A stretch of 4,122 bases of DNA. Origin: a virus. Taxonomy: Duplodnaviria; Heunggongvirae; Uroviricota; Caudoviricetes. The number at the start of each line of letters is the position of its first letter. Position 1 is the first letter of the stretch. Under the pieces are notes generated by a model. It was not told the origin of the DNA. It saw only the letters and a program-made list of their open reading frames with translations, and ran no database searches. The stretch is from the IMG/VR virus record IMGVR_UViG_2734482004_000012; one strand, written 5' to 3'. The translations under genes were made by a program, and so were the position numbers. Shown piece after piece: positions 3,160-4,122 of the stretch.

Positions 3160-3186
3160 AAAAAACAAAACCCGCCGAAGCGGGTT
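3160..3186 (-). terminator. Rho-independent terminator ending the hok transcript
   Basis: Minus-strand RNA reads AACCCGC-UUCG-GCGGGUU followed by UUGUUUUUU (plus stem 3169-3175 / 3180-3186, loop 3176-3179, A-rich 3160-3168). UUCG tetraloop, GC-rich stem, U tract. Confidence 0.55.
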
Positions 3187-3189
3187 ACG

Positions 3190-3205
3190 TGCGGGTGCGT
3201 TGAGG
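3190..3205 (-). promoter_or_regulatory. 3' fold-back (fbi-like) element of the hok mRNA, complementary to the 5' leader element at 3568-3582
   Basis: Plus 3190-3205 tgcgggtgcgttgagg is the reverse complement of plus 3568-3582 cctcaagcacccgca apart from one extra g. It lies immediately upstream of the terminator hairpin. Confidence 0.45.
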
Positions 3206-3254
3206 ATGCCTGACACATCAGAGGTGGCGAGGGATTTCTCCCTCGCCGGGTCTC

Positions 3255-3410
3255 TTACTCCTCAGGTTCGTAAACTGTGAAGACAGCGACCTCCGTCTGG
3301 CCGGTTCGGATTCGTACCTCGCAGAGGTCTTTCCTCGTTACCAGTGCCGTCACTATGACGGTTAAACAGATGACGATCAGGGCGATTAACATCGCCTTTT
3401 GCTGCTTCAT
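3255..3410 (-). CDS. hokD: Hok/Gef family type I toxin (51 aa), HokD/RelF-like
   Basis: Product MKQQKAMLIALIVICLTVIVTALVTRKDLCEVRIRTGQTEVAVFTVYEPEE has the single transmembrane helix and the conserved RKDLCEV...TGQTEVAVF core of the Hok/Gef family. It is near-identical to HokD/RelF as I remember it. SD AAGGAG 9 nt upstream of the ATG at 3408-3410. Confidence 0.85.
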   Translation of the reverse strand: MKQQKAMLIALIVICLTVIVTALVTRKDLCEVRIRTGQTEVAVFTVYEPEE

Positions 3411-3467
3411 AGCCTGCTTCTCCTTGCCTTTCGGCACGTAAGAGGCTAACCTAGATTTGCCGTTCAT
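3255..3467 (-). CDS. Mok-like in-frame leader ORF (70 aa) overlapping hok
   Basis: ATG at 3465-3467 with GAGG 8 nt upstream. The N-terminal extension MNGKSRLASYVPKGKEKQA is in frame with Hok. It resembles the MokC extension (...KVKEKRAMKQHKAM...) as I recall it. In hok-family loci, Mok translation is what allows Hok translation. Confidence 0.5.
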   Translation of the reverse strand: MNGKSRLASYVPKGKEKQAMKQQKAMLIALIVICLTVIVTALVTRKDLCEVRIRTGQTEVAVFTVYEPEE

Positions 3468-3567
3468 AGATTGAGCCTCAGATTAATGTTAAGCGTCTTG
3501 CAGGACGCGTAATATTAACTGGGGCTTTTCTCTATCTGCCTTTGGTGTTCATGCCTGAGGCAGATAG

Positions 3568-3582
3568 CCTCAAGCACCCGCA
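3568..3582 (-). promoter_or_regulatory. 5' leader (tac-like) element of the hok mRNA, complementary to 3190-3205
   Basis: See the paired element at 3190-3205. It is followed in the transcript by a 9-bp hairpin (plus 3532-3540 ctatctgcc / 3559-3567 ggcagatag). Confidence 0.45.
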
Positions 3583-3621
3583 GCAATTCTACTTAACTCC
3601 CGTCACCTCGCCAATATAAAA

Positions 3622-3711
3622 TCAATCAGAAAGGCGATCCATAAGAACAACAGCAAGACAATAAATTGCCATTACAGCCGCAATAGCTAGCGCACATTTG
3701 AGAACCAGCAC
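3622..3711 (-). CDS. Candidate small hydrophobic protein (29 aa, MLVLKCALAIAAVMAIYCLAVVLMDRLSD)
   Basis: Canonical SD AGGAGG (plus 3717-3722), 5-nt spacer, GTG start at 3709-3711, stop TGA at 3622-3624. 13 of 30 codons begin with G, a first-position bias typical of real coding frames, and the product is a single predicted transmembrane helix. Below the 60-aa threshold of the supplied ORF track. It conflicts with the alternative 96-aa frame 3626-3916. Confidence 0.3.
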   Translation of the reverse strand: MLVLKCALAIAAVMAIYCLAVVLMDRLSD

Positions 3712-3916
3712 GACAACCTCCTGTATTGGACGTACACCAGTTCTGATAAATATGAGGCTGTCTCATCATTGATTCAATATAACTATTGGGTATAGTTTCT
3801 GTGATTTTGTTCTGTAGAAATGGAACACAACAACCAGTCACCACCAGCACTTCTTTAAATACGCCAAGTCCGACGCAAGCTAACCTTCTAGTCCGCTTTG
3901 AGCGATCTGCAGACAT
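3626..3916 (-). CDS. Hypothetical Cys-rich 96-aa ORF (low confidence; alternative to the 29-aa ORF)
   Basis: Listed in the ORF track. SD is weak (GAAGG about 11 nt upstream). About 10 percent Cys and many rare codons (AGA, AGG, ATA, CTA, GGA). It overlaps the candidate promoters and the better-supported 29-codon frame. Confidence 0.15.
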   Translation of the reverse strand: MSADRSKRTRRLACVGLGVFKEVLVVTGCCVPFLQNKITETIPNSYIESMMRQPHIYQNWCTSNTGGCRAGSQMCASYCGCNGNLLSCCCSYGSPF

Positions 3917-4122
3917 TGCTAGCAGCCTTCTGTGTGAATTCTCAGGGAGCAGGTCGGCATAGCATCACGTTGAGGCTCTTACCCTACTTGTTGACACCAA
4001 CCCTAACTCCACAGACTGATTCATAAATTAGTAATCTGCGTGTTTCGCACTTTTCAGAAATGCTTTCATATTTTCATTAGGTCGCTCAATTTCGAAGTTA
4101 CTTCCATATAACTCTTGTAATT

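Follow-up and report, generated by a model that had tools for sequence, protein, structure and literature searches.

The inner membrane of enterobacteria contains small single-pass proteins such as AcrZ, MgrB, MgtS, KdpF and CydX, and prophages carry morons, independently expressed accessory genes of which bor, lom and rexAB of lambda are examples. ORF29, a 29-codon open reading frame of a lambdoid prophage, resembles both. It shares with the AcrZ-type proteins (20-50 residues) a single helix, a short polar tail, a Shine-Dalgarno (SD) sequence of its own, a history of being routinely missed in annotation and the conservation of hydropathy rather than of exact sequence. The likeness is one of size and architecture, however, and whereas the AcrZ-type proteins belong to the core genome, ORF29 resides on prophages and plasmids, in Escherichia and Shigella only. 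Like a moron, ORF29 is an accessory gene, located between the replication genes and nin/Q, found in some relatives but missing or truncated in others, and conserved promoter hexamers, which are comparative rather than experimental evidence, point to a promoter of its own. It differs from morons in having no terminator of its own, so that it probably shares the 3' end of hok, and in not being variable cargo itself, as it marks the fixed edge of the slot that holds such cargo.

The type I toxins (Hok/Gef, Ldr, TisB, Ibs, ShoB, Zor and DinQ) are also similar to ORF29 in size, in their helix and in their charged end, and here the likeness is physical as well, with ORF29 adjoining a hok/sok locus. 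Unlike these toxins, ORF29 has no profile match, no similarity to HokD and no conserved antisense or divergent complementary RNA; its leader is short and unstructured, and its tail is acidic rather than basic. Finally, mok, the overlapping frame needed for hok translation, is likewise a small frame 5' of hok on the same strand, but it is a separate frame here (3467-3255), whereas ORF29 is located 5' of the hok promoter, has no overlap with hok and is retained in some loci that lack it.

The whole stretch of DNA analysed (4,122 nucleotides, hereafter the window) is part of a lambdoid prophage with its genes all on the minus strand, in the order cargo genes, hokD, a 92-aa hypothetical gene, DUF968, RusA and an antiterminator. 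The last 923 bases of the window are 100% identical to E. coli UTI89, S88, APEC O1 and other ST95-type chromosomes, and ten N (masked or unknown bases) occupy positions 2053-2062, within the DUF968-like gene. The features at and around ORF29 are as follows.

3905-3723, minus strand: conserved non-coding block 5' of ORF29, holding the predicted promoter and the palindrome AACTAT-N5-ATAGTT
3777-3772, minus strand: predicted ORF29 -35 hexamer TTGAAT, exactly 17 nt from the -10 hexamer
3754-3749, minus strand: predicted ORF29 -10 hexamer CATATT, the same in five upstream types and on the Shigella virulence plasmid (pINV)
3743-3712, minus strand: predicted ORF29 5' leader of about 32 nt, placed from the -10 hexamer, with a putative transcription start site (TSS) at about 3743
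3722-3717, minus strand: ORF29 SD sequence AGGAGG, 5 nt ahead of the GTG
3711..3622, minus strand: ORF29 coding sequence, GTG start, 29 codons, TGA at 3624-3622
3916..3626, minus strand: rival 96-aa frame, rejected as a gene
3614-3609 and 3591-3586, minus strand: hok promoter, TTGGCG and TAGAAT separated by N17, sigma-70-like, 7 nt past the ORF29 stop
3579..3169, minus strand: hok/sok locus (context), comprising the hok mRNA, mok, the hok coding sequence, the fbi-like element and the terminator
3467-3255, minus strand: mok
3410-3255, minus strand: hok coding sequence, hokD in RefSeq at the equivalent place
3205-3193, minus strand: fbi-like 3' element of hok
3186-3169, minus strand: hok terminator

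Just 5' of the conserved ORF29/hok block is a slot (window positions 3905-4122 and upstream) whose fixed right edge is a hairpin at 3914-3891 on the minus strand and whose cargo differs between prophages (loci L001, L003-L005, L092, L093 and L095-L097). The cargo seen there includes a SIR2 protein, DUF4145, the reverse transcriptase of retron Ec67, a restriction endonuclease, a restriction-modification system, QueH and an alpha/beta hydrolase, while in UTI89 the slot holds two hypothetical genes with weak HEPN/RES-NTD1 and GNAT matches. The slot looks like a defence or moron hotspot.

A prior inspection of the window that used the letters and open reading frames alone (the sequence-only reading) had described a hydrophobic 29-codon frame, with AGGAGG, a 5-nt spacer and a GTG start, directly 5' of hok, and all of these elements were confirmed on the minus strand, the spacer between AGGAGG and the GTG (3711-3709) being TTGTC. 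Its product in the window, MLVLKCALAIAAVMAIYCLAVVLMDRLSD, consists of one hydrophobic helix (approximately residues 2-24) followed by the acidic tail DRLSD. The GRAVY value of 1.81 places the peptide in the top 0.5% of 29-residue windows taken from all open stretches of the window, and its best 19-residue stretch has a mean KD of 2.70. The motif AGGAGG-N4-9-DTG was seen once in the window against 0.39 occurrences expected, and at least one occurrence arose in 59 of 200 shuffles. The window alone is therefore only suggestive and not clearly beyond chance, so that the case for ORF29 being real is carried by comparison between relatives.

Homologous loci were drawn from complete E. coli genomes, IMG/VR, GTDB genomes, phages and plasmids, with the short peptide queried through a three-sequence alignment and, for the protein clusters, through an in-frame 40-codon stretch of the window. 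The 97 loci with ORF29 represented 17 distinct 87-nt haplotypes and 9 protein variants, and the frame was intact in 97 of 97, with a GTG start, a GGAG-type SD sequence, 29 codons (35 in one) and no internal indels. GGAGG is conserved in nearly all haplotypes, pINV included, with the BL21 type reading GGAGA, and the 5-nt spacer and a GTG or ATG follow it in every locus that has ORF29. As most copies are >90% identical, intactness alone is weak evidence. Substitutions between close haplotypes fell 4/2/13 at codon positions 1/2/3 (p=0.0019), 12 of them synonymous and 7 nonsynonymous, and a minimum spanning tree of all haplotypes, whose counts are not those of a true phylogeny, held 55 substitutions (24 synonymous and 31 nonsynonymous), with 28% synonymous expected (p=0.01). 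The replacements themselves were conservative, with a BLOSUM62 sum of +15 versus -15 simulated (20,000 simulations, p=0.001), and they kept hydropathy (summed hydropathy change, p=0.0002 by simulation) as well as a tail of the form M-(D/E)-(R/H)-(L/F)-S-D.

Changes per site were lowest in the block within ORF29 (0.19, versus 0.49 upstream and 0.40 in the hok promoter), and its dN/dS, 0.16 against pINV and 0.26-0.85 for other pairs, points to a moderate degree of constraint, as would be expected of a membrane-spanning helix. The non-coding block at 3905-3723, which is common to most loci from about position 3905 and carries deletions in three haplotypes, lacks codon-position bias in two of its three frames (44/38/38 and 38/38/46). 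In loci L007-L011, L095 and BL21, homology begins just 5' of the SD sequence, and in L087 (S. flexneri chromosome) and L094 (E. coli) it stops just 3' of the ORF29 stop. Comparison thus shows that purifying selection acts on the ORF29 frame and maintains a hydrophobic helix with a short tail, and the proposal of a single-helix hydrophobic peptide encoded by a selectively maintained frame is borne out by the substitution pattern across the loci and pINV. We conclude that ORF29 very probably is a genuine gene, whose product would be a membrane peptide of 29 residues.

An independent lineage comes from Shigella and EIEC-like E. coli, whose large virulence plasmids carry an approximately 80% identical copy of the promoter and ORF29 segment (134 plasmid records at 60-80% identity; Shigella accounted for 124 of 143 matching records). 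On pCP301 (L099), ORF29 is located some 290-380 nt 5' of the icsP/sopA ATG, and the elements kept are TTGAGT-N17-CATATT, AGGAGG with its 5-nt spacer, ATG as the start codon, 29 codons and TGA; the product is MLVLKGTLAIAAVMTIYCLIVVLMERFSD. Between the window and pINV, ORF29 has 10 synonymous and 7 nonsynonymous differences (dS 0.74, dN 0.12, dN/dS 0.16), versus dN/dS of 0.43 and 4.6 in the other two frames, and the leader with the SD sequence is the best-conserved segment of this comparison (89% identical). The whole prophage-derived fragment on pCP301 (L099 3022-3250) lies immediately 5' of icsP/sopA (icsP ATG at L099 3467); besides an intact ORF29 with its promoter, it holds a decayed hok promoter with a leader fragment, which is all that remains of hok on pINV. 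The icsP literature treats the pINV DNA that bears ORF29 as regulatory or intergenic.

Upstream of ORF29, the consensus TTGA(A/G)(T/G)-N17-CATATT recurs in five otherwise diverged upstream types and on pINV. The -35 hexamer varies (TTGAAT, TTGAAG or TTGAGT) at a fixed spacing of 17 nt, and the spacer sequences differ. Retention of hexamers and spacing between diverged spacers is the signature of a sigma-70 promoter, with a predicted start near 3743 and a leader of about 32 nt, and TTGAAT-N17-CATATT in the window looks like ORF29's own conserved promoter. Its weak points are that 17 loci (the L019-type haplotypes) have an altered -35, with TCTCAT in place of TTGAAT creating the palindrome TCTCATCA/TGATGAGA, that the -35 is absent from the E. 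albertii locus (L091) and that the promoter is missing from the BL21/REL606 copy, which adjoins a truncated DUF977 gene and may be expressed only by read-through. The copy in BL21 Star(DE3) (L098, approximately 1500-1620) reads MLVLKCTLAIVAVMAIYCLVIVLMDHLSD; its upstream promoter is lost and its SD sequence, GGAGA, is weaker. A perfect palindrome, AACTAT-N5-ATAGTT, lies just 5' of the predicted -35 (3797-3781, minus strand) and could be an operator.

ORF29 was found in 1,896 of 5,426 complete E. coli genomes, 215 IMG/VR contigs and four sequenced phages, and a search of 5.8 billion proteins returned 33 clusters, the named ones all from Escherichia (E. coli or E. albertii), with no Pfam domain and only the names "hypothetical protein" or "membrane protein". 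Its range is thus restricted to Escherichia and Shigella. Three MAGs labelled Collinsella, Scatousia and Haemophilus (L086, L089 and L090) contributed short contigs of near-identical E. coli prophage with ORF29, most likely binning contamination rather than true hosts. The sequence-only reading had called the frame unannotated, which is true of the identical UTI89 region in RefSeq and of all 30 rows among the matches listed, but homologs have been annotated elsewhere, as hypothetical or membrane protein. An exact-sequence look-up recovered the window's ORF29 sequence as GCZ25347.1; further deposits are the homolog WP_000960667.1, the REL606/BL21(DE3) variant (ACT39199.1 from REL606, and ACT43394.1), the pINV variant in the UniRef cluster represented by A0A0M1UIT1, and a Prokka call, CP037924_00134, for the copy in M90T pWR100. 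The ORF29 call itself is therefore not new, although the gene is uncharacterised, and neither the peptide nor the WP accession turned up in full-text literature searches. In phage HannyBb (L101 2908-3093), a 61-aa ORF is annotated on the opposite strand across ORF29, probably a mis-call given the frame-specific selection on ORF29.

With slightly better than even confidence, we favour the explanation that ORF29 is a stand-alone gene of lambdoid prophages and pINV, separable from hok and transcribed from its own promoter, whose product is a single-pass inner-membrane peptide and likely modulates a partner. In lysogens, ORF29 would be transcribed from its own promoter, and it would also be carried on phage early-right read-through transcripts; in the window, where hok is not preceded by a terminator, the ORF29 transcript probably runs on into the hok leader. 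Its peptide would insert into the inner membrane and most likely bind and modulate a larger membrane protein or complex, which is how the majority of characterised small membrane proteins of enterobacteria work, rather than act as an RNA-controlled pore-forming toxin. This partner-binding mode of action is our best guess, reached by analogy and from the absence of toxin-antitoxin features. ORF29 is truncated without apparent consequence in O157 prophages, which is a further weak point of this explanation.

We regard it as unlikely that ORF29 is instead a toxin, whether of an unrecognised type I module or as a free-standing membrane-damaging or abortive-infection peptide, controlled by RNA and in tandem with hok/sok. 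The peptide is small and very hydrophobic, as a type I toxin (a hydrophobic membrane peptide of <60 aa) should be, with a single helix and a charged tail; its gene has a genuine type I system as neighbour, at the edge of a slot carrying defence genes, and most copies start with a weak GTG. However, Pfam and NCBIfam gave no family at E<=10, PADLOC none at E<=0.01 and PHROGs none, and BLASTP produced no alignment with HokD. A search of the opposite strand for an antisense RNA, as the sequence-only reading had recommended, uncovered one promoter-like site, on the plus strand at 3593-3622, whose RNA would be antisense to the 3' end of ORF29. This site is not conserved: it is affected by a -10 T/C polymorphism in about half of the haplotypes, is lost with an 11-nt deletion in L005 and does not occur in L087, L094 or pINV. 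An antitoxin RNA might still arise from a promoter that departs from the consensus.

Nor were direct repeats able to encode a trans-complementary sRNA found at the ORF29 locus, and the predicted leader of about 32 nt contrasts with a long structured 5' UTR. The RNA fold of 3770-3580 was no better than that of shuffled sequences (z = -0.29), and the energy of a Sok-ORF29 duplex equalled that of shuffled sequence. The pINV copy combines an ATG with a strong SD sequence and has no recognisable antitoxin. In view of the lack of a conserved antisense promoter, repeat, unusual fold or toxin-family match, the type I toxin reading that had been suggested by comparison with the TisB, Ldr and Ibs families is unsupported. 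Two other leads were rejected. An 11-nt inverted repeat, 3763-3753 against the hok 5' end, falls in the promoter spacer and was treated as chance because that spacer varies between upstream types. Among the Pas sRNAs, PasA, near which Sok is common according to a 2026 preprint, adjoins lysis genes and not the ORF29 locus.

A broader and similarly unlikely suggestion is that ORF29 founds a new family of membrane-active peptides carried by mobile elements and restricted to Escherichia and Shigella, whose members might be toxins or abortive-infection effectors under non-canonical control, or might act with or against Hok in the membrane, with retention beside icsP on the Shigella virulence plasmid reflecting a role in envelope physiology or in the regulation of virulence.

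Returning to ORF29 as a translated stand-alone gene, we consider it rather improbable that the frame is untranslated and that its conservation stems from a non-coding function, as DNA upstream of hok or as an RNA element, or from recent common ancestry. The near-identity of most copies (>90%) is compatible with such an origin, as is the similar identity to pINV of ORF29 (80%) and its flanks (74-79%), and an SD sequence with a start codon arose by chance in 30% of shuffles. Furthermore, the Shigella dRNA-seq TSS table (M90T) has no entry for ORF29; on pWR100, this one dataset places icsP TSSs at 90709 and 90726 on the minus strand and none between 90,800 and 91,199, the stretch in which the ORF29 TSS would be expected (approximately 91,030). 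The missing TSS is not decisive, since the stretch borders DNA involved in H-NS silencing, for which the region 800 to 350 bp upstream of the icsP TSS is required according to a review (PMC5192488), and the conditions were those of the laboratory.

Against an untranslated element stand the excess of position-3 and synonymous changes, which occurs in the ORF29 frame only, and the conservative, hydropathy-preserving nature of the replacements. Indels have been accepted at both edges (2 nt inserted ahead of the SD sequence in L006, and 11 nt deleted past codon 29 in L005), yet none within the frame, across lineages diverged by up to 21%. The start codon has been improved to ATG on pINV, and the RNA fold is not unusual. 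The promoter and the translation of ORF29 both rest on comparison, and ORF29 stands as a candidate gene that is very probably genuine.

The relation of ORF29 to its neighbour bears on a further alternative, in which ORF29 acts mainly in cis. Rfam model RF01794 (hok/sok) matches 3579..3405 on the minus strand with 113 bits and places the hok mRNA 5' end at 3579, which together with the position of the hok promoter has the hok mRNA begin approximately 43 nt past the ORF29 stop. This was the sole Rfam model matching in the window, with none over ORF29; a match to isrK at 3246-3165 (27.8 bits versus a threshold of 50) was dismissed as the hok 3' end. The 5' end of the hok mRNA, GGGTGCTTGAGG (3579-3568), is complementary to the 3' element CCTCAACGCACCC (3205-3193) that immediately precedes the terminator, a pairing that fold-back inhibition of hok would predict. 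Where the sequence-only reading had the ORF29 stop inside the hok promoter region, we found that it abuts the promoter, 7 nt upstream of the -35, and lies outside the core. No terminator was found between the ORF29 stop (3622) and the hok start (3579), making read-through from ORF29 into hok likely; the one terminator-like hairpin, within ORF29 (3687-3668), is weak, and such sites were no more numerous than in shuffles.

The two genes are nonetheless separable. Although hok is directly downstream of ORF29 in 85 of 89 loci, ORF29 is kept where hok has been replaced (L087 and L094) or has decayed (pINV), and in O157 prophages hok is kept while ORF29 is truncated by inserted cargo, its remnant being called a pseudogene by PGAP. 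As each persists where the other is replaced, decayed or truncated, ORF29 and hok are best regarded as separable modules. In the O157:H7 prophages L092 (2405-2540) and L093 (2495-2525), no more than the last few ORF29 codons are left next to the hok promoter, the rest having been removed by cargo insertions, and in L093 an inserted restriction-modification system cuts off hok itself. Of the suggestion that the two units are regulated together, what stands is that read-through is plausible with no terminator between them; the presence of ORF29's own promoter and the separability of the modules count against it.

That transcription or translation of ORF29 across the hok promoter serves mainly to tune hok/sok in cis, by promoter occlusion or through a 5'-extended hok mRNA, would suit the 7-nt distance from stop to -35, the lack of an intervening terminator and the near-constant presence of hok downstream. 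We nevertheless judge this improbable, as the amino acid sequence itself is conserved, beyond a mere open frame, ORF29 remains intact where hok is replaced or decayed, and hok loci elsewhere, for example in O157, do without it. For the same reasons, namely a conserved peptide and hydropathy and persistence without hok, ORF29 was rejected as a uORF or regulatory leader peptide acting on hok. No upstream ORF is mentioned in the hokW-sokW paper.

The remaining alternative, that the overlapping Cys-rich 96-aa frame (3916..3626) is the real gene, is effectively refuted, for although it is open in the window, with at least 96 codons open in many close relatives, it lacks the position-3 and synonymous excess (44/38/38 substitutions by codon position upstream, and 2 synonymous versus 15 nonsynonymous changes over the ORF29 segment), its ATG lies outside the conserved block, and no more than 36-56 of its codons stay open in loci whose upstream DNA differs. 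No significant family match was found for it in Pfam, NCBIfam or PHROGs, the best being a PHROG of unknown function (E=0.2). The sequence-only reading had named conservation of one frame over the other as the deciding comparison, and because the 96-aa frame is not conserved as coding, the outcome favours the 29-codon frame.

If the ORF29 peptide is made, approximately one in three E. coli strains, and practically every Shigella virulence plasmid, would express an unstudied membrane peptide, one that has gone unnoticed because annotation pipelines usually skip it. Among the strains examined, those in which ORF29 is absent or damaged include the O157 prophages, where it is truncated, and BL21 has a promoterless copy only. 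Reporter constructs and deletions made for the study of icsP may unknowingly have carried or removed a coding gene. Ultimately, its position at the fixed edge of a slot for anti-phage cargo and directly beside hok/sok makes ORF29 a candidate player in phage-host or membrane-stress biology.
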